Positions 563 to 56,515 of a DNA stretch of 64,000 nucleotides are shown piece by piece. This DNA comes from Chrysomallon squamiferum. Taxonomy: Eukaryota; Animalia; Mollusca. A program made the translations under genes and the position numbers. The stretch's first letter is position 1, and each line of letters starts with the position of its first letter. Below the pieces are notes generated by a model. It saw nothing but the letters and a program-made list of their open reading frames with translations, was not told where the DNA came from and did no database searches. The DNA lies in the NCBI GenBank assembly GCA_012295275.1, contig CM022671.1, forward strand, positions 33,480,001 to 33,544,000, read 5' to 3'.

Positions 563-3500
563 TTACACAGAACTGTGCTTTCTGTACATCATAACTGGAC
601 CTGTGGGGACGTACATGTAAGACTTTCCAGTCAGGTATTCCTGCTCTCCTTGGGCTTTATGTCTTGTGTTACCACTGATATCATAAATAAAAATGTCTTT
701 GACATCAAAATTTTCCCCTTCATGAACAATCTGCATTCCATTCATATTAGTATCCAGCCTTTCTCTGTTATCTTCATTAAGGCTATCCTTGACATCAACA
801 TTGTACCCTCCATTCATATCAGCGTTCAGCCTTTCTCTGCTGTCACCCTTCAGCCTATCCTTGTCATCAACATTGTACCTTCCATTCAAATTACCATTCA
901 GCCTTTCTCTGTTGTCATCATTAAACTTATCCTTGACATTGACCTTCTGTCTTCCATTCACATTAGCATTCAGCCTTTCTATGTTTTGATTATAAACCGT
1001 ATGTTTGACACGCGCCTTCCGCCTTCCATTTACAATACCATTCACAATAGCATTCAATCCTTCTCTGTCAACATCAAGCCTATGATTCACATGAACTTTC
1101 TGCCTTCCATTGACATTAGAATTCAGTCGTTCTCTCTTTTCTTCATTAAGCCTATGCTTGATGTGACCATTCTGCCTTCGACAGACATTAGCATTATGCC
1201 TTTTTCTTTTGTCATCATAACGGCTATCCTTGATATCACTATTCTGCCTTCCATTCATATTAACATTCAGCCTTTCTCTGTTGCCATCATTAAGGCTATC
1301 CTTGACATCAGTATTCTGCCTTCCATTCATATTAGTATTCAGCCTTTCTCTGTTGCCATCATTAAGCCTATCCTTGACACCAGTATTCTGCATTCCCTTC
1401 ATATTAGCATTCAACCTTTCTCTGTTGTCATCATTAAGCCTATCCTTGATATCAGTATTCTGCCTTCCATTCATATTAGCATTCAGCCTTTCTCTGTTGC
1501 CATCATTAAGCCTATTCTTGACATCAGTATTCTGCCTTCCATTCATATTAGCAGTGAGCCTTTCTCTGTTGTCACCATTAAGCCTATCCTTGACATCAGT
1601 ATTCTGCCTTCCATTCATATTAGCATTCAGCCTTTCTCTGTTCTCTTCATTAAGCCTATCCTTGACATCAGTATTCTGCCTTCCATTCATATTAGCATTC
1701 AGCCTTTCTCTGTTCTCTTCATTAATCCTTTCCTTGACATCAGTATTCTGCCTTCCATTCATATTAGTATTCAGCCTTTCTCTGTTGCCATCATTAAGCC
1801 TATCGTTGAATTGACCATACTGCCTTCCATTCACATCAGCATTCAGCCTTTCTTTTTTCTCATCATTACGCCTATCCTTAACATCAGCATTCTGCCTTCC
1901 ACTGAAATTAGCATTCAGCCTTTCTCTATAGTCATCATTAAGCCTCTCCTTGATATCACTATTCTGCCTTCCATTGACATTAGCATTCAGCCTTTCTGTA
2001 TTGTCATCATTAAGCCTATCCTTGACCTCAGCATTCTGCATTCCATTCACATTACAATTCAGCCTTTCTCTATTGTAATCATTAAGCCTATCGTTGATAT
2101 CAGCATTCTGCCTTCCATTCACATTATCATTCAGCCTTTCTCTATTATCATCATTAAGCCTATCCTTGACATCAGTATTCTGCCTTCCATTCACATTATC
2201 ATTCAGCCTTTCTCTGTTGTCATCATTAAGCCTATCGTTGAATTCACCATACTGCCTTCCATTCACTTTAGCATTCAGCCTACCTTTTTTGTCATCATTA
2301 CGCCTATCCTTAACATCAGCATGCTGCCTTCCACTGAAATTAGCATTCAGCCTTTCTGTATTGTCATCATTAAGCCTATCACTGACATCAGTATTCTGCC
2401 TTCCATGGACATTAGTATTCAGCCTTTCTCTGTTGCCATCATTAAGCCTATCGTTGATATCAGCATTCTGCCTTCCATTCACATTAACATTCAGCCTTTC
2501 TCTATTGTCATCATTAAGCCTATCGTTGACATCATCATACTGCCTTCCATTCACATTAGCATTCAGCCTTTCTCTATTGTCATCATTAAACCTATCGTTG
2601 ACATCAGAATTCTGCCTTCCATTCATATTAGCATTCAGACTTTCTCTATCGTCATCATTAAGCCTATCGTTGACATCACCATACTGCCTTCCATTCACAT
2701 TAGCATTCACCCTTTCTCTATTGTCATCATTAAGCCTATCCTTCACATCAGATTTCTGCCTTACACTGACATTAGCATTCAGCCTTTCTGTATTGTCATC
2801 ATTAAGCCTATCGTGGACATCAGTATTCTGCATTCCATTGACAGTAGTATTCAGCGTTTCTCTGTTGCCATCATTAAGCCTATCCTTATAATCAGTATTC
2901 TGCCTTCCATTGACAATAGTATTCAGCCTTTCTCTGTTGCCATCATTAAGCCTATCCTTGACATCAGCATTCTCGATTCCATTCACATTAGCATTCAGCC
3001 TTTCTCTATTGTGACCATTAAGCCTATTCTTCACATCAGCATTCTGCCTTCCATTCATATTAGCATTCAGCCTTTCTTTGTTCTCATCATTAAGCCTATC
3101 CTTGACATCAGCATTCTGTCTTCCATTCACATTAGCATTCAGCTTTTCTCTTTTGTCATCATTAAGCCTATCGTTGACATCAGCATTCTGCCTTCCATTC
3201 GTATTAGCATTCAGCCTTTCTCTGTTGTCATCATCAAGCCTATACTTGACATGAACCTTTTGCCTTCCATTCACATTAGCAATCAGCCTTTCTCTGTTGT
3301 CATCATCAAGCCTATCCTTGACATCAGCATTCTGCCTTCCATTCACATTAGCAATCAGCCTTTCTCTATTGTCATCATTAAGCATATCGTTGACATCAGC
3401 ATTCTGCCTTCCATTCACATTAGCATTCGGCCTTTCTCCGTTGTCATCATCAAGCATATCGTTGACATGAACATTTTGCGTTCCATTCACAGTAGAATCC

Positions 3501-5151
3501 AGCCTTTCTCCGTTGTCCTCATTAAGCCTATACTTGACATGAACCTTTTGCCTTCCATTCACAGTAGAATCCAGCCTTTCTTTTTTGTCATCATTACGCC
3601 TATCCTTGACATCAGCATTCTGCCTTCCATTCACATTAGCAATCAGCCTTTCTCTATTGTCATCATTAAGCATATCGTTGACATCAGCATTCTGCCTTCC
3701 ATTCATATTAGCACTTAGCCTTTCCGTCTTATCATCATTAACCCTATTCTTGATATGAACATTCTGCCTTCCATTTTGCAACTGTTGACTTGGTGAAGTT
3801 GCTTCTGATACTCTGCTTCCTGAATTCTTAAATTCTATATTATCTGAAGATAGGAACTGTTTATTTACAGGTACAACCTGCTCTCTAATGTTCACTGCTG
3901 ACTGGTAATTGCCTGATTTCTTCCTTTCTCTTAACAGTTCTTCAATGACCTGATCAAGGTCTGGACTGAAGAGGATACTGGGTGGTGCAAACCCATTTTC
4001 CTTGCTTAGACGAATGATGGCCTGTCGTTGTCCTTCAGTTATGTACAGCAGCAGCTGAGGAGGAAAATTCCATGTGGTCCGACCACTGACGTCCTGATAG
4101 AAGAGCTTGTTTTTTGTAGCAGCCTCTTGACTTCTGTGAATTGTCCAGCCATCTGGCAGGGCAGAATCTATTAGAAGAATCCCACAATCACATCTTTCTG
4201 AATTCTTCAGATTCCTTTTAAGGGTCTCTAACTTAGGAGCATTTTCATCAAATGGGGTTGAGTAATAAACATTATCCATGTTGGGACAGTCTGGAAGTGG
4301 CAATGCTGGTCGACTGACTGGTACATTAACTTTCCTCTGACGGTCCTTTTCAATTATGTTTCTTCTGATGTCTGAAATTTTCTGAGTGGATGATGGGAGC
4401 CAGCTGGCTACTGCTTCTAGTTCAGTTAAGCTATCAAGTGACACGTGTTTTTCACTGGTCTGGCTGAATAATGGAATTCTGTTCTTCTCTCTGAAAGACG
4501 AAGTGCTGGAACATCTTACAGGAAATGCTGTTTTAGCTTCTGGAAAATAAAACATTATTCACTGCTGTTTTATGAAATAGGTTAAACAATACCATAGATA
4601 CAAAAGAGATATGTTAGTGTTGAAATATCTATCATTAGTGAAGGAAATATACATCAGTCAAATAATAATAACAACAACAACAGAATTAATATTAGAATTA
4701 ATGATAGTAATAATAATTTAATACAAGAGTGCAGTAGAGTAAAGATACCAAATCGCTGTACCTGGACTCGTGGCTAAGAAGGACGGATGTAGTGAGTTTG
4801 GTGATATCGCATGTGGTATCATGGCCTGAGGTATACCTTTTCCCATCTGTTCATCCGGTTGTATCGTCCTTTTACTCACACCGCCCAACCTTTCGTAGTC
4901 CGAGTAATTGTTAATTGGATACAGCAAGTGCACATTCTCTATCTTTTCCAAGTTACCTATTCTGTGGTGCTTGTAAAAGCTACACAGTTTCATGAATGAC
5001 ATGAATTTCTTTCCAGGAACGATGTAATACAGGAAGTGTCCACCTTGTTTCTCCATAACCACATTTATGTGTCGTACGGAACTATCACTTATACTGTAAG
5101 ATACATAAATAAATAAACAAATTAATAGCCGATATCAACAACAGCAATAAC

Positions 5152-5204
<53 letters not shown>

Positions 5205-5206
5205 TA

Positions 5207-5249: not shown

Positions 5250-6707
5250 TAATTTATAACAGTAATAGTAATAAACAATGATATAAATTAAAAATCAATA
5301 TCAAATAAGCTGTTATTGGTACACTGCCTTTTTAGAAAACAATATCAATATACTTGACAAAGATATCACTGACAATCATACTGTAAACAAGAACAGTTAT
5401 AAAATGAAATTACAAAAAATAAAATAAAATACATTTGAAAACATTTTTCTTTAAACCTAAACGTTTTGAAACAAATTATTTCAAAACGTTTAGTTAATTA
5501 TTATATTACTAACCATTTATCATCAAGAATTATTTTCTGATGTTCACAGTCATTACTTATAAACTCTAAATATATTGATATTCTCATATTTTACCTGACA
5601 GATAAAGACAAGTAGTTATCTCCCTTCGTACTCAGCCGCAACAGATAACATCCAGTACTTACAGGACTGTAATGTTTAATGAACCTTGTCGCCTGTAGAA
5701 TAAAAATACAAATAAATTAGATAATGAAATATTAAAAGTAATCAAAATTAATTAATAAATTATAGACACATAATATACATGTACAAATGTAAAATCTTAT
5801 AAAGAAACACACCAACCAGTTATCCTGATGTCATCATGAAGTGAAGCATATAGACACGTGTATTTTCACATATATAAATAAACAAACAAACTCATGCCCA
5901 TATACTTACCTATCTGCCTGCCTACTTACGTATCTATGTATCTAATCAGTGTAGGAAAGCACAACCTTGTATTTACAATTCTAATAATTTTGAGAAGAAT
6001 GACATAAAATGTGTAACAGTGCTAGACTGCACAAGAGATGGCAGCTTTAATCATAAACGATAATACTGCAGATACAATATCTCTACATCTTAACATCTCT
6101 GTTGATATAAGTTTTTTTGCTTTAATTTAATAAGATGCAGTAGACTGTAAGATTGTGTCCTCACAAAAGACCCATCAGTCTATTTTTTATTTTACCCAGT
6201 GATTCACAGTTGATGTACAAAATGTTGTACGGTAAGTGCTATTTTGTCTGCAGGATGGTGCATATCTAAAGGGTCTCTTGCTGTTAATCAGAAAGAGTAG
6301 TTCACAAAATGGCAGCAGTGGGTTTCCTCTATCACTATCTCAGTGGTCCTTAAGCCTAAACTTTAAACACATAGGTATGATAATTATGTTGTTGGCATCA
6401 TAAAATACAAATTACTTCATTTCTTTTTTCAAAATATTTAGTTATAACAACTGCATATAAATACACAATAAACAAAGTCAGCAAACTACATATAACTGTA
6501 AATATTGATATGACAATGAAATGTATATATATTTACATCCATATATACAAACCATACAACAATAAACATTGATAACTCAGTGACAATATATGTATGACAT
6601 ATAACAGATCAGAAACTTACCTCTTCACTATTTGTAATGTCTGGAAAGAAGAAGGGTAAAGTTGCTATTTCTTTTGGTACATAATTCGTATGATTAGCTT
6701 CAGCCAT
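563..6707 (-). CDS. Copy A: SH2-Pro-rich-WW-24aa repeat-Tyr tail adaptor, ~1497 aa, 4 coding exons (6707-6621, 5692-5595, 5093-4762, 4539-563)
   Basis: All introns are GT-AG and phases join in frame. Spliced SH2: LPFFFPDITNSEE|ATRFIKHYSPVSTGCYLLRLSTKGDNYLSLSVS|ISDSSVRHINVV...KKFMSFMKLCSFY...LLYPI. WW: LPDGWTIHRS...LFYQDVSGRTTWNFP. The start ATG is inferred: a splice acceptor lies just upstream (~6752) and the frame is open, so an upstream coding exon cannot be excluded. Confidence 0.85.
720..3780 (-). repeat. Coding 72-bp minisatellite, ~42 units (copy A)
   Basis: CTGCCTTCCATT recurs every 72 bp (e.g. 1460, 1532, 1604, 1676). Consensus peptide RQNADVKDRLNDDNRERLNANVNG. Confidence 0.95.
5146..5255. 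repeat. (AAT)n microsatellite (homologous tracts in all units)
   Basis: Directly visible. Confidence 0.95.
6130..6425 (+). mobile_element. Decayed SINE in the intron after coding exon 1; homologues at ~17895-18165, 27785-28075, 38610-38880, 48525-48815 and 55945-56235
   Basis: Relatively GC-rich island (GGATGGTGCAT...CTTGCTGTTAATCAGAAAGAGTAG...GGGTTTCCTCT...GTGGTCCTTAA). It resembles, from memory only, an abundant tRNA-derived Nin/Deu-type SINE of gastropods. No database check was possible. Confidence 0.6.
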
Positions 6708-8237: not shown

Positions 8238-10279
8238 TAACTTAATGAAAGTCCTTTATAAAAACTAATTACAATGAAAAACATAAAATGTAATACTTTT
8301 ACAGGTACAATCTATGACTAAGTATTCTGTATTTCAAACGGTCTCTTTATCTAAAAGTAGTTTAGACAGGCCTATATCACTTGTCATTCATATTATTGCT
8401 GAAACTGATTGTATGATGATTAAAGTCAAATAGACTGAGTGACTTTGTTGATAACAAAAACTGAAATAAAAAGTTTAGCCTTTGCTAGAAGCATTAAAAA
8501 TACACGTTAATTCTAACATGTACTAATAGTAATACTCACTCATGTTCATTAACTGACAAAGTTTTTATGGGAACTTTTCACGTCTATTTTGATATTTTTT
8601 CCATTTCTTTTACCCTTAAACAGGAAATTATTGAGCGTCTTCCTGAACAGAAAACGAAACTAAAAAAGAGGGGAAGGCTGACTCATTGTTAATAGTAACG
8701 GGTCCGAAAGTCGTTACTGATTTAAGGTTATACAAAAATGAAGTAAGCTACAAACTTGGTATTACTGCCGCCACCACAATCAGAACATCACTGTTATATT
8801 AAGACTATAGCTGCTGCAATTAGTAGTCCTATAATTATTATACTAGTACTACTACTAATACTACCACTACTGGTACTATTATTCCTAAAATGGTTGCTGC
8901 AGCTACCACCACAATCACACCAGTATGAATTATTTATATGTACCATAACATTGACAACTTCTAATACTTCTACTATTACACAACTACTACCACCGTAGCT
9001 TCTAGCTATTTTTACTACTACTTCTATCCTACAATTTATTTAAGCATCATACTGTTATTGACCCTCTATTTTCTTTCTCCGTCCTCTTCTTCGTACTATT
9101 ATTAGCTGCTTTATGAATTTGATTGTACTTTCGTGTCTCCGTAAAGATATGCGCATTTAATATCCCATACATGCTGATTATGATAAGAATATTTAGATAA
9201 TGAAGACTAATATATGCTTCTCTTAAAATAAACAAATGCATGAATGAATGAATGAACGAATGAATAAATAAATATGTCATTAAACATTTCTTCATTCATA
9301 TTACTACAAGCATTAGTGTAACTCCAATAAATACAACTATTGCTGCTTCTGATACTACTACTGCTGTTATTATTGTTAATACTAATATTTTTGTATTCCT
9401 TATTTCGTTCTCGTCTCAAAAACAAAATTCTAAAATATTTCACCACTGCACCGAAACATTGGTATCTGTTGATAGAAACGAATAGAGGCATTATTGCTTT
9501 CGATTACAATGTAGAGTTTGATAGGTTGTCTTCATCAACGTCGTTATGGGAGACCTGTATGTAACAGGGTTAGCGATGGCTCATTGCGCACCAGAGAAAG
9601 TGACCAATGAGCCACCCTTTCGGGTCATATTGGCCATCATCTTAAACAGTGAAAGAAGCTAGAAAGAACACATATAAATCGGTTTTCTTTTCTTTTTTCT
9701 TCTTCTTATTTTTCTTTCTTTCTTTTTATAATTATTCCTGTCATAAATTTCATTTTAAGCGCACATAATGCAACAAACTAAAGTACGAATTCCAATTTTA
9801 ACACATTGACCTCAGTCTTGGGCATTTTGTGCTAATGATTCAGTCTCCATGTTTTCAACGTACTTTCAAGAGTCCTAGCAAACAGTAAATGTTTTTCAAG
9901 ATTAAACCCATCAAAACTGACAAAAATTGTATGATTCCTTTGTGATTTTTGGCATTTTGCACAACAGGTTTAGTAAGGATATACAAAATTAAATCAGCCT
10001 CAACTGAGCTTATTTCTTCCTGGACAGGCTCAATAAATGCATATGACATAGCGTGGGAGATTTTCTGAGAAAATGGTATGTACATTTTATGGATAAATAA
10101 GTAAATTTTGTATACTTCCTAATTTTTATTTTATGTATTCAAACTAATCTTTTCCAGTGATATCTATAATGAGACAAGGAGAATAGGAGAATAGTTGCAT
10201 TTTGCCAAATGTCAAGTGATCTTTCATGTCATTGGTGTGCCTTGGTCTGTTCTCTTCTGTTAATGTACTACTACTGCTG

Positions 10280-10314: not shown

Positions 10315-12643
10315 GCTAATGATAATAATAATAATAATATTACTACTATTACTGTTAATTCCTCTACAAGTATTAGAATAATTTTATCAGTGGTTATCTG
10401 TTATTATTATTGGTTTCCAGCAATCTGTCCTTAAAATTAGATTACAGAATCAAATGGGAATATAAATAGACTATAAATGTGTTTGTACCAAAAATATAAT
10501 CTAGTGCTTTCATGACAAAACAACAAAAATATAGTAGCATTTTGATAGTACAACAATCTCCAGTTATAAAATATCATATATATTATAATAGTTTTATAAT
10601 AATACAGTGATTATTATGATAACCTATCAACAAGAATATTATTTTATCTGAATATTTTCAATTTGAAAATGTGACATTCAATTCTGTAGTCATTAAACAT
10701 TTAATAGAAGATAAAATACTACTTTATTTACATAATGCTTAAGTGTTCTTCAATATTATACATATAAAAAATAAAATAAAAAGATATTTTACATATAATT
10801 TATAAAATAAGAACAAATAAGAAAAGAAAACTCTACACTAAAAACAGACCAGTCTATTTTAGTTGCTAAAAGTTAGATACTATTTCAAGCACAAATATTT
10901 AAAACAAATAAAATAATATATATATATATATGATAAACGTTATATATAAAAAATAAACATTTTATGAGTGCACACAAATACATAAAGAAATACTGTTTAA
11001 AATTAATTGCAAATTAAGAAAGACATGCCTCCTCATTCGGTGTATTTACACAATTCATTGTTCATATTAAAATGTGCAACTGTGAAACTTGTAGATCAAT
11101 ACAATTTGCAAAAACACTGACAAAGATAAAAATATAGTGCAGTGAATTTATTTAGTCTTTTTCCAAAAAATATTTTACATTTTCACACACACAAACACAC
11201 ACACACACACAGACACAGACAGAGAGAGAGTCATTATATACATAGTAAAAACAAAAACAACATTGATGGTCATTATTGTAGTTTTACAAATGCAAGACCA
11301 CAATAGGCATCATAACATCAGTCTTTACATATACAGGTACAGATCCTCATAAGTATGAATATATTTATAAAATTAAAATAATACAATTTTACAGCAAACA
11401 TTTCTCACTAAAATAAATATTAAATTATTTACTGATAACAATGAGAAATTGTAGTACTGCATATAAAACTATAAAACAACTCCATATTACAGAAAATTAT
11501 GGAAATCATAAGATATTAAATCAGAAACATGAAAATAAAAGATGAAGTAATTAAAGCTCAATTTTAGAAAAAAACACATATTTGAAATTAATATACACGT
11601 TTTAACCGTAACATATACATTTATAAAATATGTATTATAAAAAAACTCATGGAAGTATTGTTATTTTGTACGGCATCTGGTACACATTCACATTCAAATG
11701 TATATAGATTTTTTACTAATTCTTATTTACTTATTTATTCTTATTTTATTATGATTTTGTTATTATATTTGAATGTGTATCCAGATTAATCCGAACATTA
11801 AAGTGTACTAGATGCAGTACAAAATGCTAAATATTTACATATACTTAAATTTCAAGAACTGTCTCACTGGTTTATCTAGATAAAACTAAACCTACATATT
11901 ACAGTGAATGCATCTGAAAGATAATAAAGTACTGTACATTTTCTCAGTTCTAAAAATATTCAGCAGAATGTCTAAGTTTTTGACAGAAGGGCTGTGGCAA
12001 GGCACATCAAAGAACTTATTTTGTAGTTCCATAGTTTAGAAAGATTCCTATTTTTCAAATTATTAATACAGTATCTTTATAATGAAACAATTTTTCCCAA
12101 ACTAGCATCACTTCTAGGCTGACAACACAACATTTATTTAATTATTAATTTTTTTATTTGTATTTTAAATTCATTGTTTCTGGCATATTCATTGTGAGTA
12201 TGAATATTTGTGTTAAGCATTTAGCTGCACATACACATCATCTCTTTATAGAGATGTCTCTGTGACTGTGCAAGTGTACAAAGTTTATATCCAAATGTCA
12301 GTAACTTGGTACTCTATTACTTCAAATCACTGGTCTTATTCATTATTAAAAGATTAATATATTATGCAGAGTTCTTTAACATTTAAAAACACAAACAAAA
12401 AACATTTATTAACCATTTGAAGTAAATTGTAAACCACTATACTAAGTTGTTAGATAAGCTGTAAATCCCTTGTACTTTTAATTTTAAGTTTCCAATTTAG
12501 AACTTTTATTACTGTATGTATTTGGTCACATCGGGTAGACAAAAGAAATAGTGATATATGACACAGTTTGTTGTTATATGCCCAGTTCTGTATGAAAATT
12601 TCGCTGAACACTAAGTCAACCTTGCTGAGGATGTCTCTCTGGA

Positions 12644-15600
12644 TCAGAACTGTCTTTTTCTGTACATCACAACTGGACCTGTGGGGAAGTACAAGTAAGA
12701 CTTTCCAGTCAGGTAATGCTGCTCTCCTTTGGCTTTCTGTCTTGTGTTACCATTGATATCATAAACCGACATATCCCTGACATCAAGATATTGCCTTTGA
12801 TTAATATGGAGAATCTGCCTTCCATTCATATTAGAATTCAGTATGTCTCTGCCGTCATCATTAAGCCTATCCTTCACATCAGCATTCTTCCTTCCATTCA
12901 TATTAGCATTCAGCCTGTCTCTGTTTTCATCATTAAGCCTATCCTTGACATCAGCATTCTGCCTTCCATTCATATTACCATACAGCCTTTCTCTGTTTTC
13001 ATCATTAAGTCTATCCTTGACATCAACATTCTGCCTTCCATTCACATTAGCATTCAGCCTGTCTCTGTTTTCATCATTAAGTCTATCCTTCACATCAACA
13101 TCCTGTCTTCCATTCACATTAGCATTCAGCCTTTCTCTGTTGTCATCATAAAGCCTATCCTTGTCATCAGCATTCTGACTTCCATTGACATTAGCAGTGA
13201 CCATTTCTCTGTTGTCATCATTAAGCCTATCTTTGACATCAGCATTCTGCCTTCCATTGGCATTATCATTCAGCTTTTCTCTGTTGTCATCATTAAGCCT
13301 ATCCTTGACATCAACATTCTGGCGTCCATTCACATTAGCATTCTGCCTTTCTCTGTTCTGATCATTAAGACTATGCTTGACATCAGCATTCTTCCTTCCA
13401 TTCACATTAGCATTCGGCCTTTCTCTGTTGTTATCATTAAGCCAATGCTTGACATGAGCATTCTGCCTTCCACTCACATTGCCATTAACCTTTCCTCTGT
13501 TGTCATCATAAAGCCTATCCTTGTCATCAGCATTCTGACTTCCATTGACATTAGCAGTGACCATTTCTCTGTTGTCATCATTAAGCCTATCTTTGACATC
13601 AGCATTCTCATTGGCATTATCATTCAGCTTTTCTCTGTTGTCATCATTAAGCCTATCCTTGACATCAACATTCTGCCGTCCATTCACATTAGCATTCTGC
13701 CTTTCTCTGTTCTGATCATTAAGACTATGCTTGACATCAGCATTCTTCCTTCCATTCACATTAGCATTCGGCCTTTCTCTGTTGTTATCATTAAGCCAAT
13801 GCTTGACATGAGCATTCTGCCTTCCACTCACATTGCCATTAACCTTTCCTCTGTTGTCATCATTAAGCCTATCCTTGTCGTCAGCATTCTGACTTCCATT
13901 GACATTAGCATTCAGCCTTTCTCTGCCGTTATCATTAAGCCTATATTTGATATCAGCATTCTTCCTTCCATTGACATAAGCATTCAGCCTTTCTCTGTTG
14001 TCATCATTAAGCCTATCCTTCAGATAACCATTCTGCCTTCCATTCACATTAGCATTCACCCTTTCTCTGCTGCCATCATTAAGCCTATCCTTGTCATCAG
14101 CATTCTGACTTCCATTGACATTAGCAGTGAGCATTTCTCTGCTGCCATCATTAAGCCTATCGTTGACATCAGCATTCTGCCTTCCATTCATATTAGCACT
14201 CAGCCTTTCTCTTTTGTCATCATTAAGCCTATCTTTGACATCAGCATTCTGCCTTCCATTCATATTAGCACTCAGCCTTTCTCTTTTGTCATCATTAAGC
14301 CTATCCTTGACATCAACATTCTGCCGTCCATTCACATTAGCATTCAGCCTTTCTCTGTTGTCATCATTAAGCCTATCCTTGACATCAACATTCTGCCGTC
14401 CATTCACATTATCATTCAGCTTTTCTCTGTTGTCATCATTAAGCCTATCCTTGACATCAACATTCTGCCGTCCATTCACATTAGCATTCAGCCTTTCTCT
14501 GTTCTGATCATTAAGACTATGCTTGACATCAGCATTCCTCCTTCCATTCACATTAGCATTCGGCCTTTCTCTGTTGTTATCATTAAGCCAATGCTTGACA
14601 TGAGCATTCTGCCTTCCATTCACATTCCCATTAACCTTTTCTCTGTTGTCATCATTAAGCCTATCTTTGACATCAGTATTCTGCCTTCCATTCAAATTAG
14701 CACTCAGCCTTTCTCTTTTGTCATCATTAAGCCTATCTTTGACAACAGCATTCTGCCATCCATTGGCAATAACATTTAGCCTTTCTCTGTTGTCCTCATT
14801 AAGCCTATCCTTGAGATCAGCATTCTGCCTTCCTTTCATATTAACATTCAGCCTTTTTCTGCTGTCATCGTTAACCCTATCCTTGCCATGAGCATTCTGA
14901 TTTCCATTGAAATTTGCAGTGAACATTTCTCTGTTATCATCATTACACCTATCTTTGACATCAGCATTCTGCCTTCCATTGACATAAACATTCAGCCTTT
15001 CTGTATTGTCATCATTAAACCTATCTTTGATATCAGCATTATGCCATCCATTGGCAATAACATTAAGCCTTTCATCATTAAGCCTATCCTTGAGATGAGC
15101 ATTCTGCCTTCCATTGACATTAGTATTCAGCATTTCTTTTTTGTCATCGTTAAGTCTATCCTTGACATCAGCACTCTGCCTATCTTTGACATCAGCATTC
15201 AACTTTCCATTGACATTAGGGTTCAGCCTTTCTCTGTTGTCATCATTACGCCGATCCTTGACATCAACATTCTGCCGTCCATTGACATTAGCACTCAGCC
15301 TTTCTCTGTTATTATCGTTAAACCGATTCCTGACATCAGCATTCTTTCTTCTATTCATATTAGTACTCAGCCTTTCTTTTTTATCATCATTAAGCCTATC
15401 CTTGACATTAATATCCTGCCTTCTATATTGCAGCTGTTGACTTGGTGAAGTTGCTTCTGATACTGTGCTTCCTGAATTTTCAAACTCGCTATTATCTGAA
15501 GATAGGAACTGTTTATTTACAGGTACAACCTGCTGTCCAATATCCAATGCAGACTGGTAATTATCCAATTTCTTCCTTTTTGTTAAAAGTTTTTCGAGGA

Positions 15601-16934: not shown

Positions 16935-16997
<63 letters not shown>

Positions 16998-19780: not shown

Positions 19781-19799
19781 TAATAACAATAATAATAAC

Positions 19800-19859
<60 letters not shown>

Positions 19860-26819: not shown

Positions 26820-26857
<38 letters not shown>

Positions 26858-28847: not shown

Positions 28848-28889
<42 letters not shown>

Positions 28890-37000: not shown

Positions 37001-37660
37001 ATTTAAAGAGAGTTAAAAAAATGCAATTAATCTGAGATAATTTAGTCTGAACATTAACATTTACTATATAATATAATTATAATAATAATTTAATGCAACG
37101 ATAACAACAAAAGAGTAAATGATGAAAAAAAAAAAAACTATATCAATAATAACATAAAACAACAACAACAAAAAAACATGATGAACAGCAACCATAATAA
37201 CAATAATAACAACAGAATTAATATTAGAATTAGTGATAGTAATCGTGATCTAATACAAGAGTGCTGTATAGTAAAGATACCAAATCGCTGTACCTGGACT
37301 CATTGCTAAGAAGGACGGCTGTCGTGAGTTTGCTGATGTCGCAGGTAGTATCATGACCATCTGTTCATCGGGCTGCATCGTTCTTTTACTCACACCGCCC
37401 AACCTTTCGTAGTCCGAGTAGTTGTTAATTGGATAGAGCAAGCGCACATTCTCTATCTTTTGCAAGTTACGTATACTGTGTTGCTTGTAAAAAGCTACAC
37501 AGTTTCATGAATGACATGAATTTGATTCCAGGAACGATATAATACTGGAAATGTACACCTTGTTTCTCTATAACCACATTTATATGTCGTACAGAACTTT
37601 CACTAATACTGTAGAATAGATAAATAAATAAACAAATCAATAACTGATATCAACAACAGC

Positions 37661-37711
<51 letters not shown>

Positions 37712-40577: not shown

Positions 40578-40608
<31 letters not shown>

Positions 40609-43600: not shown

Positions 43601-45207
43601 CCAAATTAAGAAAGACATAACTCCTCTTTCGGTGTATTTACACAATTCATTGTTCATATTAAAATGTGCAACTGTGAAACTTTGTAAAAACATGGACAAA
43701 GATAAAAATATAGTGCAGTGAATTTATTTAGTCTTTTTCCACAAAATATTTTACATTTTCTCACGCACACACACACACACACATTATATACATGTATAGC
43801 AAAAACAAAAACAACTTTGATGGTCATCGTTGTAGTTTTACAAACGCAAGACCAAAATAGGCATCCTAACATCAGTCTTTACATATATAGGTATAGATCC
43901 TCATAAGTATGAATTTATTAAATCATTTAACTCTGTCATGAGAATAGATGAAGTTCAGTAATTCTTTAACATAATTTAATATTCAAAAATGCAAAACAAA
44001 CATAAATAATAATAATAATTAAAATTTATAAATCAAACATAATAAAAAAAAAGAATAATAATAAATTAAATGAATCTCTACATATTTATCCCATCAGAAA
44101 TAAAAATAAAAATATGTAAGTTCCAGAATTCTAATAAGCTTGTTATTTATTATTGTCATACTTTATTAATGGTAAAGTAACAAATTAAACAAACTCATGG
44201 AAGTATTGTGTGTTTAATATGTTATTTTTTGTACTGCACCTGGCACACATTCACATTCAAATGTATATAGATTTTTTATTAATTCTTATTTACTTATTTA
44301 TTCTTATTTTATTATGATTTTGTTATTATGTTTGAATGTGTATCCAGATTAATCAGAACATTAAAGTGTACTAGATGCAGTACAAAATGCTAAATATTTA
44401 TATATACTTAAATTTCAAGAACTGTCTCACTGGTTTATCTAGATAAAACTAAACCTACATATTACAGTGAATGCATCTGAAAGATAATAAAGTAATGTAC
44501 ATTTTCTCAGTTATAAAAATATTCAGCAGAATGTCTAAGCTTTTGGCAGAAGGGCTGTGGCAAGGCACATCAAAGAACTTATTTTGTAGTTGCATAGTTT
44601 AGAAAGATTCCTATTTTTCAAGTTATTAATACAGTATATTTATTATGAAACAATTTTTCCCAAACTAGCATCAGTTCTAGTCTGACAACACATTTATTTA
44701 ATTATTAATTTATTTATTTGTATTTTAAATTGATTATTTCTGGCATATTTAGTGTGAGTATGAATATTTGTGTTAAGCATTTAGCTGCACATACACATCA
44801 TCTCTTTATAGAGATGTCTCTGTGACTGTGCAAGTGTACAAAGTTTATATCCAAATGTCAGTAACTTGATACTCTATTACTTCAAATCACTGGTCTTATT
44901 CATTATTAAAAGTTTCATTTATTATGCAGAGTTCTTTAACATTTAAAAAACAAACAAAAAACATTTATTAACTATTTGAAGTAAATTGTAAACCACTACA
45001 CCATAGTAAGTTGTTAGATAAGCTGTAAATCCCTTGTACTTTTAATTTTAAGTTTCCAATTTAGAACTTTTATTACTGTATGTATTTGGTCACATCGGGT
45101 AGACAAAAGAAATAGTGATATATGACACAGTTTGTTGTTATATGCCCAGTTCTGTATGAAAATTTCGCTGAACACTAAGTCAACCTTGCTGAGGATGTCT
45201 CTCTGGA

Positions 45208-46687
45208 TCAGAACTGTCTTTTTCTGTACATCACTACTGGACCTGTGGGGAAGTACAAGTAAGACTTTCCAGTCAGGTACTGATGCTCTCCTTTGGCTTT
45301 CTGTCTTGAGTTAGCATTAATATCATAAACCGACATATCCCTGACATCAAGATATTGCCTTTGATTAATATGGAGAATCTGCCTTCCATTCATATTAGAA
45401 TTCAGTATGTCTCTGCCGTCATCATTAAGCCTATCCTTCACATCAGCATTCTTCCTTCCATTCATATTAGCATTCAGCCTGTCTCTGTTGTCATCATTAA
45501 GTCTATCCTTGACATCAACATTCTGCCTTCCATTCACATTACCATACAGCCTTTCTCTCTTATCATCATTAAACCTATCTTTGATATCAGCATTATGCTA
45601 TCCATTGGCAATAACATTCAGCCTTTGTCTTATGTCATAATTAAGCCTATCCTTGAGATCAGCTTTCTGCCTTCCATTGATATTAGTATTCAGCCTTTCT
45701 CTGTTGTCGTCGTTAAGGCTATCGTTGACATGAGCATTCTGATTTCCATTGTCATTAGCATTCAGCCTTTGTCTTATGTCATCATTAAGCCTATCCTTCA
45801 GATCAGCATTCAACTTTCCATTGACATTAGCATTCAGCGTTTCTCTGTTGTCATCATTACGCGTATCCTTGACATCAACATTCTGCCGTCCATTGACATT
45901 AGCACTCAACCTTTCTCTCTTATTATTATTAAGCCAATTCATGACATAAGCATTCTTCCATCTATTCATATTAGTACTCAGCCTTTCTCTTTTATCATCA
46001 TTAAGCCTATCCTTAACATTAATATCCTGCCTTCTATATTGCAGCTGTTCACTTGGTGAAGTTGCTTCTGATACTGTGCTTCCTGAATTCTCAAACTCGC
46101 TATTATCTGAAGATAGGAACTGTTTATTTACAGGTACAACCTGCTGTCCAATATCCAATGCAGAGTGGTAATTATCCAATTTCTTCCTTTTGTTAAAAGT
46201 TTTTCGAGGATTATGTCACATTCTGGACTGAAGAGAATACTGGGTGGTGCAAACCCATTATCCTTGCTTAGACGAATGATGGTCTGTCGTTGTCCTTCAG
46301 TTATGTTCAGCAGCAGCTGAGGAGGAAAATTCCATGTGGTCCGACCATTGACGTCCTGATAGAAGAGTTTGTTTTTTGTAGCAGCCTCTTGACTTCTGTG
46401 AAGTGTCCAGCCATCTGGCAGGGCAGCATCTATGAGAAGAATCCCACATTCACATCTTTCTAAATGCTTCAGTTTCCTTGTAAGGGTCTGTAACTTAGGA
46501 GCATTTTCATCAAGTGGGGTTGATTAATAAACATCATCCATGTTGGCACAGTCTGGAGGAGGCAATGGTGGTCGACTGTCTGGTACACTAGCTTTCCTCT
46601 GACGGTCCTTTTCAGTGATGTTTGTTCTTATGTCTGGAGCTTTCTGACTGGATGATCGCAGCCCAATGGCTACTGCTTTTACTTCAG
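45208..46687 (-). pseudogene. Copy E: dead remainder of the last exon
   Basis: Same nonsense codons as C (46524-46526 and 45598-45600), plus a 1-nt shorter T-run near 46188. Confidence 0.8.
45370..46040 (-). repeat. 72-bp minisatellite, ~9 units (copy E)
   Basis: Near-identical to the copy C array. Confidence 0.9.
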
Positions 46688-47563
46688 TTACCCTATCAAG
46701 TGGCTGAATAATGGTATTCTTTTCTGCTTTCTGAGAGAAGAAGTGCTGGAACTTCTTACAGGATGTGCTCTTTTAGCTTCTGTAAAACAAAACAGTGTTT
46801 ACTCCTCTTTTATGAAATAGGTTAAAGAATACTTTGGATATAAAAGAGATATGTTAATGTTGAAATATCTATCATTAGTCAAGGAAATAATATTTATAGG
46901 CATTTTCTACATTTAAAGAGAGTTAAAAAAATGCAATTAATCTGAGATAATTTAGTGTGAACCTAAACTTTAACTATATAATATAATTATAATAATAATT
47001 TAATGCAACGATAACAACAAAAAGTAAATGATAAAACTATATCAATAATAACATAAAACAACAACAACAACAAAAAAACATTATGAACAGCAACCATAAT
47101 AATAATAATAACAACAGAATTAATATTAGAATTAGTGATAGTAATCGTGATCTAATACAAGAGTGCTGTATAGTAAAGATACCAAATCGCTGTACCTGGA
47201 CTCATTGCTAAGAAGGACGGCTGTCGTGAGTTTGCTGATGTCGCAGGTAGTATCATGACCATCTGTTCATCGGGCTGCATCGTTCTTTTACTCACACCGC
47301 CCAACCTTTCGTAGTCCGAGTAGTTGTTAATTGGATAGAGCAAGCGCACATTCTCTATGTTTTGAAAGTTACGTATACTGTGCTGCTTGTAAAATGTACA
47401 CAGTTTCATGAATGACATGAATTTGATTCCAGGAACGATAAAATACTGGATATGTACACCTTGTTTCTCTATAACAACATTTATATGTCGTACAGAACTT
47501 TCACCGATACTGTAGAATAGATAAATAAATAAACAAATCAATAACTGATATCAATAACAGTAA

Positions 47564-47601
<38 letters not shown>

Positions 47602-49095
47602 ATAATAATAATAATAATAATTCATAACAGTAACACTAATAAACGATGAGATAAATTAAAAAGTTAATACATTTTAAAATTAAGAAGCAATATCAAATAA
47701 GCTGTTATTGGTACACTGCCTTTTTAGAAAACAATATCAGTATACTTGACAAAGATATCACTGACAATCATACAGTAAACAAGAACAGTTATAAAATGAA
47801 ATCGCAAAAAATAAAATAAAATCAATCTGAAAACATTTTTCTTTAAACCTAAATGTTTTGAAACAAATTATTTCAAAACGTTTAGGTATTTATTATATTA
47901 CTAACCATTTATCATCAAGAATTATTTTCTGATATTCACACTCATTATTTTTACACCATAAATATACTGATATTCTCATATTTTACCTGACAGATAAAGT
48001 TAAGTAGTTATCTCCCTTCGTACTCAGTCGCAACAGATAACATCCAGTACTTACAGGACGGTAATGTTTAATGTACCTTGTCGCCTGTAGAATAAAAATA
48101 CAAATAAATTAGATAATGAAATATTAAAAGTAATCAAAATTAGTTAATAAATGATAGACACATAATATACATGTACAAATATAAAATCTTATAAAGAAAC
48201 AAACCAACCAATTATCCTGATCTCATCATGAAGTGAAGCATATAGACACGAACATCTTCACATATATAAATAAACAAACAAACTCATGCCCATATACTTA
48301 CCTATCTACCTGCCTACTTACGTATCTATGTATCTAATCAGTGCACGAAAGCATAACCTTATATTTACAATTCTAATAATTTTGAGAAGAATGACATAAA
48401 ATGTGTAACAGTACTAGACTGCACAAGAGGTGGCAGCATTAATCATAAACGATAATACTGCAGATACAATATATCTACATCTTTACATCTCTATTGAGAT
48501 AAGTTATTTTGCTTTAATTTAATAAGATGCAGTAGATTTTAAGATCGTGTCCTCACAAAAGACCCATCAGTCTATTATTTATTTTACCCAGTGATTCACA
48601 GTTGATGTACAAAAATCTATATGGTAAGTGCTATGTTGTCTGCAGGATGGTGCATGTCTAAAGGGTCTCTTGCTGTTAATCAGAAAGAGTAGCTCACAAA
48701 ATGGCAGCAGTGGGATTCCTCTATCATTATCTGAGTGGTCCTTAAGCCTAAACTTTAAAAACATAGGTATGATAATTATGTTGATGGCATCATAAAATAC
48801 AAATTACTTCATTTCTTTATTCAAAATGTTTAGTTATAACATCTGCGTATAAATACACAATCAACAAAGTCAAAAATCTATATATAACTGTAAATATTAA
48901 TATGACAATGAAATATGTATATACATCCATATATACAAACCATACAACAATAAACATTGATAACTCAGTGACAATATATGTATGACATATAACATATCAG
49001 AAACTTACCTCTTGACTATTTGTAATGTCTGGAAAGAAGAAGGGTAAAGTTGCAATTTCCTCTGGTACATAATTCGTATGATTAGCTTCAGCCAT
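46688..49095 (-). CDS. Copy E: truncated, predicted SH2-only protein of 196 aa (exons 49095-49009, 48084-47987, 47509-47196, 46779-46688); may be a pseudogene
   Basis: Near-identical to copy C, with the same frameshift and stop and intact SH2 exons. Confidence 0.6.
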
Positions 49096-49585
49096 CACTG
49101 GTGTGAGGATTCTGTTAAACGTTTTTGTGTACTTCTGAGCTAAATAACAACACAGTATTATCATTTGATAGTATATGAGTGTTTGTATAATATCTATTTT
49201 AAGGAATGTTTTTAAATAAAAAGTTGGCACACAATCAAATTACCATTCACAAAGCAATTATGTTTGAATAATAATTGTGCCTTCAGTTGGAAGAATAGTA
49301 CGAAGAAAAAAAAATCAATAAAAAATAGTGAAGTAACAAGGAAACTGAAAATGTCAATAGATACTAAATAAATTAAAAATAAAAATATTGTCTAGAAGCT
49401 GAGTATTTAGTTCCAGTGAGTCATACTGACCTAAATAGTATCGATTTTATAAATCAAAACAGTCAAAACCAGATTACACACATTGTAAGTGTTTAATTTA
49501 TAAATATATTATTAGAGCATAAACTGCTAGTGTTCCTATAATAAATATTATTATTAGTGATGAAATAAGAACTGTAATTAATAAT

Positions 49586-49633
<48 letters not shown>

Positions 49634-51411
49634 AATAATAATAAAATAAGAATAAGAATAAATAATAATAATCATAATAAATAATAATAATAATAATACA
49701 AATTAAAATCTTCAAATTCTGTTGACGATGGTTCAAAACCTATATAAAATATCCTGAATTAAATAACAATCATTTGATACACAACTACTTTATAGTTTTC
49801 TTTCTAAGCAGCAAAAATATTGCAACTAATAACAACGTAGGTATTAACTTCATAATGAAATCTTTAACTATATTCCAATATGTAATGTTACCCATAACAA
49901 ACCAAAATACATTATTAGAGCAAAATCTAAGGGAATAAAGTGAAACAGTTAATTGATTTTCATATTTTCAATTAAGAAAATTATCTCAAAAGATAAATAG
50001 ACTATAAATGTGTTTGTACCAAAAATATAGTATAGTGGTTTTATGATAAAACAACATTTTTAACACATTCACCTCAGTCTTGGGCATTTTGTGCTAATGA
50101 TTCAGTTTCTATGTTTTCAACGTACTTTCAAGAGTCCTAGCAAACAGTAAATGTTTTTCAAGATTAAACCCATCAAAACTGACATTGAATTGTATGATTC
50201 CCTTGTGATTTTTGGCATTTTGCACAACAGGTTTAGGAAAGATATACAAAATTAAATCAGCCTCAACTGAGCTTATTTCTTCCTGGACAGGCTCAATAAA
50301 TGCACATGACATAGCGTGGGAGATTTTCTGAGAAAATGGTATGTACATTTTATGGATAAATAAGTAAATTTTGTATACTTCCTAATTTTTATTTTATGTA
50401 TTCAAACTAATCTTTTCCAGTGATATCTATTATGAGACAAGGAGAATAGGAGAATAGTTGCATTTTGCCAAATGTCAAGTGATCTTTCATGTCATTGGTG
50501 TGCCTTGGTCTGTTCTCTTCTGTTAATGTACTACTACTACTACTACTACTAGTAATAATAATAATAATAATAATTCTATTACAGATACTATTACTACTAA
50601 TTCTCCTCTAAGTATTATTACACATATTATTATAATGTGTTAAGATAAAAGAAAGATAGTATATTTTCAGATTCTATCAGTGTTTTCATATGTTATTATT
50701 ATTGGTTTCCAGTAATCTGTCCTTAAAATTAGGTTACAGAATCAAATGGGAATATAAATAGACTATAAATGTGTTTGTACCAAAAATATAGTATAGTGGT
50801 TTTATGATAAAACAACAAAAATATAGTAGGATTATGAAAGTACAACAACCTCTAGTTATAAAACATGATATATATTATAATAGTTTTATAATAATATAGA
50901 GACTGTATTATGATAATACATGAGCAAGAATATTATTTTCTCTGAATATTTTCAATTTGAAAATGTGACATTAAATTCTGTAATCATTAAACATTTAATA
51001 GAAGAAAATCTACTACTTTATTTACATAATCCTTAAGTTTTCTTGAATATTATACATATAAAAAAGTATTAAAATATTTTACATATAATTTATGAAATAA
51101 GAACAAAGTAGAAAAGAAAATACTACACTAAAATCCCACCAGTCTATTTTAGTTGCTAAGCACAAAGAATTAAAAAAATAAAATATATATATAATATAAA
51201 TTTTTATATGAGTGCACAAAAATACATAAAGAAATACATTTTTAAATTAATTCCAAATTAAGAAAGATATAACTCCTCTTTCGGTGTATTTACACAATTC
51301 ATTGTTCATATTAAAATGTGCAACTGTGAAACTTTGTAAAAACATGGACAAAGATAAAAATATAGTGCAGTGAATTTATTTAGTCTTTTTCCACAAAATA
51401 TTTTACATTTT

Positions 51412-52567: not shown

Positions 52568-53000
52568 TTATTATGCAGTGTCGTTTAACATTAAGAAAAA
52601 GAGACAATATATCATTCATTATCCATTTGAAGTAAATTGTAAACCACAACACCATAAATGTTGTTAGCTAAGTTATAAATCCTTTGTAGTTTAATTTTAA
52701 GTTTAGAACTTTTATTACTGAGTGTATTTGGTCACATCACTATTTCCCCAATTACAGCAGTGCTGATGACTAAGTTTCTATCAGCGAGACATTATTATGC
52801 AGTGTCATTTAACATTAAGAAAAAGAGACAATATATCATTCATTATCCATTTGAAGTAAATTATAAACCACTACACCATACAAAGTTGTTAGCTAAGCTC
52901 TAAATCCCTTGTACTTTAATTTTAAATTTAGAACTTTTATTACTGAATGTATTTGGTCACATAACTATTTCCCCAACTATAGCAGTTTCTATCGGCCATT
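52568..53000. repeat. ~225-bp tandem duplication in the 3' flank of copy F
   Basis: TTATGCAGTGTC.TTTAACATTAAGAAAAAGAGACAATATATCATTCATTATCCATTTGAAG...GTATTTGGTCACAT occurs twice. Confidence 0.85.
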
Positions 53001-53080
53001 CAAAAGAAATAGTTAGTGAAATATTACACAGTTTGTTGTTATATGCCCAGTTCTGTCTTCAAATTTTGCTGAACACTAAG

Positions 53081-55223
53081 TCAGACTTGCTGAGGCTGTC
53101 TGTCTGGATCAGAACTGCATTTTCTGTACATCATAACTGGACCTGTGGGGACATACATGTAAGACTTTCCATTGAGGTCTCCTTGTGCACTCTGTCTTGT
53201 GTTAGCATTGACATCATAAATTGACATGTCTCTGGCATCAACAGTTTGCCTTTGATTAATAAGGACAATCTGCCTTCCGTTCATGTCAGCATTCAGTCTG
53301 TCTCTGTTGTCATCATTAAGCCTATGCTTGACAACAGCATTCTGCCTTCCATTCATATTAGCATTCAGCCTTTCTCTGTTGTCATCATTAAGCCTATGCT
53401 CGATATCAGCATTATGCCTTCTATTCACATTAGCATTCAGCCTTTCTCTGTTGTCATCGTTAAGCCTATGCTCGATATCAGCATTATGCCTTCCATTCAC
53501 ATTAGCATTCAGCCTTTCTCTGTTGTCATCATTAAACCTATCACTGACATCAGCATTCTGCCTTCCATTCACATTAGCATTCAGCCTTTCTCTGTTGTCA
53601 TCATTAAGCCTATCCCTGACATAAGCATTCTGCCTTCGATTTTGCAACTGTTGACTTGGTGAAGTTGCTTCTGATACTGTGCTTCCTGAATTCTCAAACT
53701 CGCTATTATCTGAAGATAGGAACTGTTTATTTACAGGTACAACCTGCTGTCCAATATCCAATGCAGAGTGGTAATTATCCAATTTCTTCCTTTTTGTTAA
53801 AAGTTTTTCGAGGATCATGTCACATTCTGGACTGAAGAGAATTCTGGGTGGTGCAAACCCACTTTCGTTGCTTAGACGAATGATGGTCTGTCGTTGTCCT
53901 TCAGTTATGTTCAGCAGCAGCTGAGGAGGAAAATTCCATGTGGTCCAACCATTGACATCCTGATAGAAGAGCTTGTTTTTTGCAGCAGCCTCTTGACTTC
54001 TGTGAAGTGTCCAGCCATCTGGCAGGGCAGCATCTGTGAGAAGAATCCCACAATCACATCTTTCTGAATTCTTCAGTTTCCTTCTAAGTATCTCTAACTT
54101 AGGAGCATTTTCATCAAGTGGGGTTGAGTAATAAACATCATCCATGTTTGCACAGTTTGGAGGAGGCAGTGGTGCTCGACTGTCTGGTACACTAGCTTTC
54201 CTCTGATGGTACTTTTCAGTGATGTTTGTTCTTATGTCTGGAGCTTTCTGACTGGGTGATGGCACCCAGCTGGCTACTGCTTTTACCTGAGTTACGCTAT
54301 CAAGTGACATGTGTTTTTCACTGCTGTGGCTCAATAATGGTATTCTTTTCTTCTTTCTGAAAGATGAAGTGCTGGAACTTCTTACAGGATGTGCTCTTTT
54401 AGCTTCTGGAAAACAAAAAAGTGTTTACTCCTCTTTTATGAAATAGGTTAAAGAATACTTTGGATATAAAAGAGATATGTTAATGTTGAAATATCTATCA
54501 TTAGTCAAAGAAATAATATTTATTCGCATTTTCTACATTTAAAGACAGTTAAAAAAAACTGCACTTAATCTGAGATAATTTAGTGTGAACCTAAACTTTA
54601 ACTATATAATATAATTATAATAATAATTTAATACGATAACAACAAAAGAGTAAATGATAAAAAAGATAATAAAAATAGAAACAACTATATCAATAATAGT
54701 ATAAAAGAACAACAAAAATAATGATCAACAGAAACAATGATAATAATAATAATAACAACAGAATTAATATTAGAATTAGTGATAGTAACAATAATTTAAT
54801 ACAAGAGTGCTGTATAGTAAAGATACCAAATCGCTGTACCTGGACTCATTGCTAAGAAGGATGGATGTAGTGAGTTTGCTGATGTCGCAGGTGGTATCAT
54901 GGCCTGTGGTATACCTTTTCCCATCTGTTCATCCGGTTGTATCGTCCTTTTACTCACACTGCCCAACCTTTCGTAGTCCGAGTAGTTGTTAATTGGATAC
55001 AGCAAGCACACATTCTCTATGTTTTGCAAGTTACCTATACTGTGCTGCTTGTAAAATGTACACAGTTTCATGAATGACATGAATTTGATTCCAGGAACGA
55101 TGTAATACAGGAAGTGTCCACCTTGTTTCTCCATAACCACATTTATGTGTCGTACGGAACTATCACTTATACTGTAAGATAGATAAATAAATAAACAAAT
55201 TAATAGCCGATATCAACAACAGC

Positions 55224-55264
<41 letters not shown>

Positions 55265-56515
55265 TAACAATAATTTATAACAGTAATAGTAATAAACGAT
55301 GATATAAATTAAACTCAATATCAAATAAGCTGTTATTGGTACACTGCCTTTTTAGAAAACAATATCAGTATACTTGACAAAGACATCACTGACAATCATA
55401 CAGTAAACAAGAACAGTTATAAAATGAAATCACAAAAAATAAAATAAAATACATTTGAAAACATTTTTCTTTAAACCTAAATGTTTTGAAACAAATTATT
55501 TCAAAACATTTAGATAATTATTATATTACTAACCATTTATCATCAAGAATTATTTTCTGATATTCACAGTCATTATTTATACACTCTAAATATACTGATA
55601 TTCTCATATTTTACCTGACAGTTAAAGACAAATAGTTATCTCCCTTTGTACTCAGCCGCAACAGATAACATCCAGTACTTACAGGACCGTAATGTTTAAT
55701 GAACCTTGTCGCCTGTAGAATAAAAATACAAATAAATTAGATAATGAAATATTAAAAGTAATCAAAATTAGTTAATAAATGATAGACACAAAATATACAT
55801 GTACAAATATAAAATCATATAAAATGTGTAACAGTGCTAGACTGCACAAGAGATGGCAGCTTTAATCATAAATGATAATGCAGATATAATATATCTACAT
55901 CTTTACATCTCTGTTGAGATAAGTTTTTTTGCTTTAATTTAATAAGATGCAGTAGACTGTAAGATTGTGTCCTCACAAAAGACCCATCAGTCTATTTTTT
56001 ATTTTACCCAGTGATTCACAGTTGATGTACAAAAATCTATATGGTAAGTGCTATGTTGTCTGCAGGATGGTGCATGTCTAAAGGGTCTCTTGCTGTTAAT
56101 CAAAAAGAGTAGGTCAGAAAATGACAGCAGTGGGTTTTCTCTATCACTATCTCAATGGTCCTTAAGCCTAAACTTTAAAAACATAGGTATGATAATTATG
56201 TTGATCGCATCATAAAATACAAATTACTTCATTTCTTTATTCAAAATGTTTAGTTATAACATCTGCGTATAAATACACAATCAAGAAAGTCAACAAACTA
56301 TATATAACTGTAAATATTGATATGACAATGAAATATGTATATACATCAATATATACAAACCATAAAACAATAAACATTGATAACTCAGTGACAATATATG
56401 TATGACATATAACATATCAGAAACTTACCTCTTGACTATTTGTAATGTCTGGAAAGAAGAAGGGTAAAGTTGCTATTTCTTTTGGTACATAATTCGTATG
56501 ATTAGCTTCAGCCAT
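53081..56515 (-). CDS. Copy F: SH2-WW-short repeat adaptor, ~613 aa (exons 56515-56429, 55712-55615, 55171-54840, 54405-53081)
   Basis: Exons of 87, 98, 332 and 1325 nt, all in frame. Only ~5-6 repeats. Tail ...GKSYMYVPTGPVMMYRKCSSDPDRQPQQV. Confidence 0.85.
53260..53645 (-). repeat. Coding 72-bp minisatellite, ~5-6 units (copy F)
   Basis: Same unit. Confidence 0.9.

Follow-up and report, generated by a model that had tools for sequence, protein, structure and literature searches.

A six-copy gene array in Chrysomallon squamiferum encoding putative SH2 adaptors with a WW-like Cys-Cys-His module and a variable repeat tail

The window analysed here (64,000 nucleotides of contig CM022671.1, positions 33,480,001 to 33,544,000 of the forward strand, from assembly GCA_012295275.1 of the mollusc Chrysomallon squamiferum) is AT-rich animal DNA and carries six related genes on its minus strand between positions 563 and 56515, numbered here as copies 1–6 (Table 1). 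Each copy has four coding exons (A–D) with GT–AG introns when spliced by coordinates; the coding region of an SH2 domain is divided among exons A, B and C, and the last exon holds a 72-nt minisatellite. We consider it probable (at roughly 0.6) that this is a six-copy array, with three intact copies, of an ancient and uncharacterised family of likely cytoplasmic phosphotyrosine adaptors, in which an N-terminal SH2 domain is combined with a WW-like, predicted zinc-binding module, and that this lineage has gained a tail of 24-residue repeats of variable length.

An earlier note on this DNA, made from the sequence alone, had described six paralogues with a common full-length product. The six copies, their four exons, the exon carrying YLLRLS and the repeat are present in each case; the reading frame, however, is open through the splice only in copies 1 (1497 residues), 2 (1332 residues) and 6 (613 residues). 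In copies 3 and 5, exon D has lost 22 nt near its start and contains two stops, one at a conserved Tyr and one within the repeat; the frame ends at 196 residues. Copy 4 has a single extra T within a T-run of exon C, which may be an assembly error; it ends at 108 residues and is otherwise open. Three copies are intact, two are broken and one (copy 4) is doubtful. Copy 5 differs from copy 3 by 0.14% substitutions, shares its breaks and has one further break, and it has no match to the non-coding 5′ exon found for copy 6. Copy 3 retains such a match, its splice sites and an open SH2 region, with its first stop in the last exon, and could possibly yield a 196-residue SH2-only decoy protein. It is possible that copies 3 and 5 have both been kept as decoys of this kind; the location of all their breaks in exon D, a long exon, is no surprise. 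Two related stretches (57300–57800 and 59060–59750), apparently an internal duplication, lie in the first intron of copy 6, and single versions of them are found upstream of other copies.

Table 1. Features of the array, in window coordinates.
Feature	Position	Strand	Details
Copy 1, intact, 1497 aa	563–6707	-	A 6621–6707, B 5595–5692, C 4762–5093, D 563–4539
Copy 1 repeat array	730–3775	-	∼42 units; longest 72-nt coding minisatellite of the window
Copy 1 match to 5′ exon	near 8540–8925		
Copy 2, intact, 1332 aa	12644–18444	-	A 18358–18444, B 17363–17460, C 16569–16882, D 12644–16143
Copy 2 repeat array	12814–15423	-	∼36 units
Copy 2 match to 5′ exon	near 20325–20710		
Copy 3, broken in exon D	24462–28354	-	A 28268–28354, B 27246–27343, C 26452–26765, D 24462–26034; ∼9 units
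Copy 4, exon C frameshift	34085–39157	-	A 39071–39157, B 38077–38174, C 37294–37608, D 34085–36870; ∼26 units
Copy 5, broken in exon D	45208–49095	-	A 49009–49095, B 47987–48084, C 47196–47509, D 45208–46779; ∼9 units
Copy 6, intact, 613 aa, spliced and transcribed	53081–56515	-	A 56429–56515, B 55615–55712, C 54840–55171, D 53081–54405
Copy 6 repeat array	53269–53641	-	∼5 units
Copy 6 conserved module	53837–54178	-	Pro-rich motif, Tyr-x-x-Pro, helix, CxCG, His, WW-like sheet, helices
Copy 6 module ligand candidates	first Cys of CxCG at 54058; invariant His 54002–54004	-	
Copy 6 non-coding 5′ exon	60314–60700	-	donor at 60314, 5′ end not fixed; beyond the span of the earlier note
Large block	13534–29245, again at ∼34255–49992		0.14–0.38% substitutions outside repeats

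RNA contigs from four runs of a single study, which give no expression level or tissue, were aligned to copy 6. The A–B joint was found in all four runs and the B–C joint in two, in agreement with the earlier reading of an SH2 domain split over three small exons. The joint between the 5′ exon and copy 6 (60314>56559) was found in three of the four; the only trace of the C–D joint comes from one run, in which a 13-letter overhang agrees with the first letters of exon D. Several contigs are identical to copy 6. Others show variant sets that mix letters of copies 1 and 4, or are unlike copies 1–4 in the 3′ untranslated region (UTR), and since these sets fit no copy in the window, further transcribed paralogues or divergent alleles must exist. 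The deepest contig of run X1 over the 3′ UTR (52792–53094) shows a 93-nt gap as well as ten differences and corresponds to none of copies 1–4 or 6, which suggests that a paralogue or allele located beyond the window is expressed.

Pfam searches with the separate exons of the window gave neither an SH2 nor a WW match at E ≤ 1; Src SH2 ranked first for exon C alone (E = 0.14). The nearest named homologue lies above the Pfam SH2 cut-off (PF00017; 27.4 versus 21 bits), and a profile made from 14 Pfam-SH2-positive homologues scores 91–96 bits in the five copies with a whole SH2 domain and 66 bits in the truncated copy 4. YLLRLS and VRH occur in all six copies, and the corresponding Arg and His columns are invariant in 23 aligned rows; we take these residues to be the βB5 Arg of the FLVR motif and the βD4 His. 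By profile score and motif, the domain divided among the exons is confirmed as an SH2 domain. In the intact proteins nothing rises above 1.2 by Kyte–Doolittle-19, so that neither a signal nor a membrane segment is seen, and the last 50 residues hold four to six Tyr residues. The SH2–module proteins contain no catalytic domain. Both the Tyr-rich tail and the cytoplasmic, non-catalytic SH2 scaffold that had been proposed from the sequence are supported by these data. An R-[RKPN]-x-S motif, possibly a site for a basophilic kinase, directly follows the SH2 domain in many homologues.

Behind the SH2 domain lies a module of ∼115 residues, which comprises a Pro-rich motif, a conserved Tyr, a helix, the signature C-x-C-G-x11-W-x-x-H, a WW-like sheet and helices. 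An unfiltered search with a 141-residue region gave 117 matches, 102 of which were aligned. Across the 102 homologues C49, C51, G52, H67, W89 and P92 are invariant, and the spacing from CxCG to WxxH is 11 residues in every one. W64 is found in 100 of 103 rows, an acidic residue two positions before the first Cys in 90 of 99, and Tyr25 in 95 of the 98 rows that have a residue there, with Pro, Val or Ile at the +3 position in 75 of the 95. A Pro motif precedes the Tyr in 67 of 96 rows; the motif had been given as RPxLPxP for the window copies, where it is indeed present but reads RAPLPPP in copy 6. Two invariant Cys residues in a cytosolic protein and an invariant His at fixed spacing suggest a metal site, and from this conservation the Cys-Cys-His set is likely to be a zinc site; the His presumably sits on the ligand face beside the WW groove (by WW numbering). 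One homologue (protein P0012) has two tandem CxCG–WW-like modules.

The AlphaFold model of the module has a predicted local-distance difference test score (pLDDT) of 88.6 (72–87 over the Pro/Tyr segment). Its top Foldseek row is a WW domain, with a root-mean-square deviation (r.m.s.d.) of 2.3 Å over 35 columns and a weak E-value of 0.23, and WW proteins rank first, again with weak E-values, when the profile of the module core is compared with the PDB. The WW hallmarks (two Trp residues, a Pro and a three-strand sheet) are present in both the alignment and the model, seven of 15 core segments match Pfam WW weakly (best E = 1.8e-4) and the module falls in WW clusters of the ESM Atlas at 0.86, which we treat as a lead only. 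An MBD identity, also listed by Foldseek, was rejected, the r.m.s.d. being mostly 9–10 Å versus 2–3 Å for WW. A wide fold search of the whole module against the PDB gave no match at Z ≥ 5, which does not in itself show a new fold. A predicted complex in which the Pro/Tyr segment was docked on the zinc-bearing module scored 0.12 in a run without an alignment and is not used as evidence. Canonical WW domains (NEDD4L, YAP1, Prp40, Pin1; PF00397) share the LP-x-GW…F-[FY]…T-x-W-x-x-P core and the three-strand sheet; the module differs from them in its longer first loop, the invariant His in strand 1, the CxCG hairpin and the flanking helices. Of the CxCG-WW in the earlier note, the CxCG and a WW-like core remain, and the comparison suggests not a plain WW domain but a divergent and longer module that likely holds a zinc site.

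The named matches to the module (30 of the 117 were looked up) are uncharacterised proteins of gastropods, bivalves, a chiton, a brachiopod and an annelid (Gigantopelta, Haliotis, Patella, Lottia, Babylonia, Crassostrea, Sinanodonta, Plakobranchus, Biomphalaria, Liolophura, Lingula and Capitella), with Gigantopelta aegis LOC121369458 as the best match at 58% identity over the module; later searches added Mercenaria, Ruditapes and Mytilus. From these matches alone the window would be placed in a gastropod close to Gigantopelta. A word-indexed protein search found the module in none of 357 candidates, and two further searches of this type gave 5 and 18 proteins, with no named deuterostome among them. 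PMC11593052 describes an uncharacterised 317-residue ‘SH2/WW’ transcript in eggs of the sea star Patiria miniata (XP_038061760), confirmed by reverse-transcription PCR, together with a Branchiostoma belcheri protein whose CDART architecture is the same; the function of the sea-star protein was not examined there, and the main text has no zinc, cysteine, histidine or mollusc. The supplementary amplicon of that paper, translated by eye, contains the Pro motif, the Tyr, CTCG, an 11-residue spacer, W-x-x-H and W-x-L-P. As this protein carries the same signature, and was found independently of the module search, the family extends to deuterostomes.

The sea-star protein resembles the window copies in its N-terminal SH2 domain, Pro-rich motif, Tyr, helix and C-x-C-G-x11-W-x-x-H…F-F…W-x-L-P, and differs in its shorter length and in having no repeat tail; the lophotrochozoan orthologues likewise have the SH2 domain and the module but no 24-residue repeat. 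By this signature (an N-terminal SH2 domain and then C-x-C-G-x11-[WY]-x-x-H) the copies belong to an unnamed sea-star/lophotrochozoan SH2/WW family. In the literature searched, which included few subscription papers, only PMC11593052 describes the family, with no function given, and no characterised protein has the repeat-bearing architecture. The suggestion that the architecture is undescribed thus holds, within that literature, for the repeat-bearing form and fails for the SH2–module core, which is ancient, spread across Lophotrochozoa and already in print; what is specific to this lineage is the tandem, mosaic and fast-evolving array with its 24-residue repeat tail.

Enzyme-free adaptors that combine an SH2 domain with Pro-rich and Tyr motifs include TSAd/SH2D2A and ALX/HSH2D. 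The SLP-76/BLNK proteins are alike in these respects, and one of them, amphioxus bbslp76 (SAM-WW-Pro-rich-SH2; PMC5431462), also has both a WW and an SH2 domain; their SH2 domain is C-terminal, whereas that of the window copies is N-terminal. No Pfam match to a SAM domain was found in the window exons or in the nearest homologue. The resemblance to TSAd or SLP-76 would be one of functional analogy, the copies being members of neither group by the features tested.

The minisatellite is present in all six copies with ∼5–42 units, as had been noticed from the sequence, and its 24-residue unit consists of three eight-residue sub-units, rich in Asn, Arg and Asp. That homologues lack this repeat was confirmed by BLASTP, which found it in none of 153 fetched proteins; a tandem repeat of any kind was seen in one of 108 homologues, with a different period. 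For the Tyr-bearing tail that follows, one close but unnamed homologue gives a weak match (E = 0.005), and since the tail has a homologue match and the repeat none, the repeat was likely inserted into an old C-terminal region. The ratio of non-synonymous to synonymous changes among units, each relative to the number possible (pN/pS), is 1.44, with 19 synonymous and 105 non-synonymous distinct changes versus 43 and 168 possible; the units appear to drift without amino-acid constraint and yet remain in frame. Pfam MgtE_N, which exceeds its cut-off on the repeat of copy 1, was rejected as compositional since the AlphaFold model of the repeat has no helices, and the ESM Atlas gave nothing informative for the repeat. 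Long plus-strand antisense open reading frames run over the minisatellites (548–3718, 12629–14779 and 34187–35578; up to 1056 residues, rich in Ile, Ser and Pro); they were rejected and are taken to be by-products of the minisatellite.

In a quick tree of 104 module rows (four short rows dropped) the six copies form a single clade, with a value of 99 in the Shimodaira–Hasegawa-like approximate likelihood-ratio test (SH-aLRT), and their sister group consists of the Gigantopelta protein and an unnamed one. The stem of the clade is long (0.35). Copies 4 and 6 are mosaic. Copy 6 is 1–2% from copy 1 in exons A and C but 10% from it in the module; in copy 4 the 5′ part resembles copy 2, while its tail and flank are 0.27% from copy 3 and 3.25% from copy 2. 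The birth-and-death evolution that the earlier note had proposed is supported, because three of the six copies are broken (copy 4 included), copies are mosaic and the stem branch is long. The three broken copies would also fit a mostly neutral expansion, in which one or two working genes are accompanied by decaying duplicates, and copies 4 and 5 are in part an assembly duplicate of copies 2 and 3. The missing 5′ exon of copy 5 and a module ratio of non-synonymous to synonymous substitution rates (dN/dS) near 1 point the same way, as does the large block of Table 1, which is either a recent duplication or an assembly duplicate and has many one-base gaps in runs. We nevertheless hold this account to be rather unlikely. 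The repeat array of copy 4 differs from that of copy 2 in unit number (26 versus 36) and order, and with the differing tail this favours real recombination over an assembly duplicate; the spacers that separate copy 1 from copy 2 and copy 3 from copy 4 are only ∼91% alike, and copy 6 and a copy-1-like sequence are transcribed.

The earlier note took the birth-and-death pattern as a sign of an immune or allorecognition locus. If the copies were under diversifying selection and read different receptor tails, the mosaics, the long stem, the module dN/dS near 1 and the RNA contigs that fit no window copy would be expected, but the SH2 dN/dS is 0.29–0.91 and thus never above 1 in all six pairs (at low power). 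For the module, five of the six pairs give 0.83–0.97 and the sixth, which has two synonymous changes, gives 1.94; sites conserved in the family vary less among the copies (three of 34 versus 23 of 81; Fisher p = 0.027), so the changes spare them. Relaxed constraint with a protected core fits these ratios better than diversifying selection, again at low power. Neither an ectodomain nor a ligand-facing hypervariable region was found, the repeat varies neutrally, the one expression record of the family is a maternal egg transcript (sea star; PMC11593052), and neither of two papers on snail haemocyte SH2 adaptors mentions the family in its title or abstract opening. The immune inference is thus not upheld, and we consider it unlikely.

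A third account concerns the tail, which could form a curli-like two-strand β-solenoid, so that the adaptors polymerise into filaments sized by repeat number. AlphaFold gives two strands per 24-residue unit, and the model aligns to SufB/SufD-type β-helices (Z = 17.7, r.m.s.d. 2.5 Å, 188 aligned) and to curli CsgA (Z = 16.6, r.m.s.d. 8.8 Å); the six hydrophobic consensus positions are all of one parity, 76 of 81 units retain Gly11, and no in-frame stop interrupts the arrays of copies 1, 2 and 4. The pLDDT of this model is only 54.6, however (33–46 for the other models), and Foldseek gave no match at E ≤ 0.001. The parity follows from the eight-residue sub-unit, the antisense frame is nearly as open (one stop), and neutral variation with Pro and Asp at would-be inward positions is contrary to a stable fold. 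A solenoid tail is therefore very unlikely.

Several observations weigh against the reading that we prefer, an array of phosphotyrosine adaptors with a zinc-bearing WW-like module. The residue that we take to be the αA2 Arg of Src-type pockets is replaced by Ser or Thr in the copies and in most homologues; this Arg is not required in every SH2 domain. A full SH2 domain is seen in 28 of the 102 aligned homologues and a partial one in 43, leaving 31 with no visible SH2, many of them apparently incomplete at the N-terminus. The window copies do not reach the Pfam WW cut-off (PF00397). The invariance counts are favoured by the exclusion of 15 of the 117 matches (plain WW proteins, two-module proteins and fragments), the alignment has no fourth invariant Cys or His column that would identify a fourth zinc ligand, and the module dN/dS near 1 indicates weak constraint.

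In the mechanism that we propose for these adaptors, each binding, phosphorylation and zinc step of which we infer, the SH2 domain, retaining the βB5 Arg and βD4 His, would dock onto a phosphotyrosine of an activated receptor or kinase, and the R-x-x-P-x-x-P-type motif would bring in an SH3-bearing tyrosine kinase. The recruited kinase could then phosphorylate the conserved Tyr-x-x-[Pro/Val/Ile], which would either provide a second docking site for SH2 domains or release the segment from the module. Zinc bound by Cys-x-Cys and the invariant His would lie at the edge of the WW groove and influence which ligand, a further partner, the groove accepts. The repeat is most likely a flexible, near-neutral spacer whose length changes through unequal crossing-over, and the crossovers behind the mosaic copies likely start in it as well. 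A bolder combination, which we think highly improbable, is an ancient bilaterian SH2 adaptor with an undescribed zinc-capped WW domain, in which a three-ligand zinc leaves an open site at the groove for a Cys, His or phosphate of a partner, and in which a lineage-gained, curli-like β-solenoid tail makes polymerising phosphotyrosine scaffolds tuned by repeat number.

The module, a conserved domain for which there is neither a Pfam model nor a closely similar solved structure, recurs behind SH2 domains from snails to sea stars. Its invariant Cys-Cys-His makes the zinc idea cheaply and directly testable in an adaptor family to which the literature searched assigns no function. The array illustrates how a gene may become a recombining cluster after a coding minisatellite enters its last exon, and if the repeat did polymerise, it would tie phosphotyrosine signalling to amyloid-type assembly in a mollusc.

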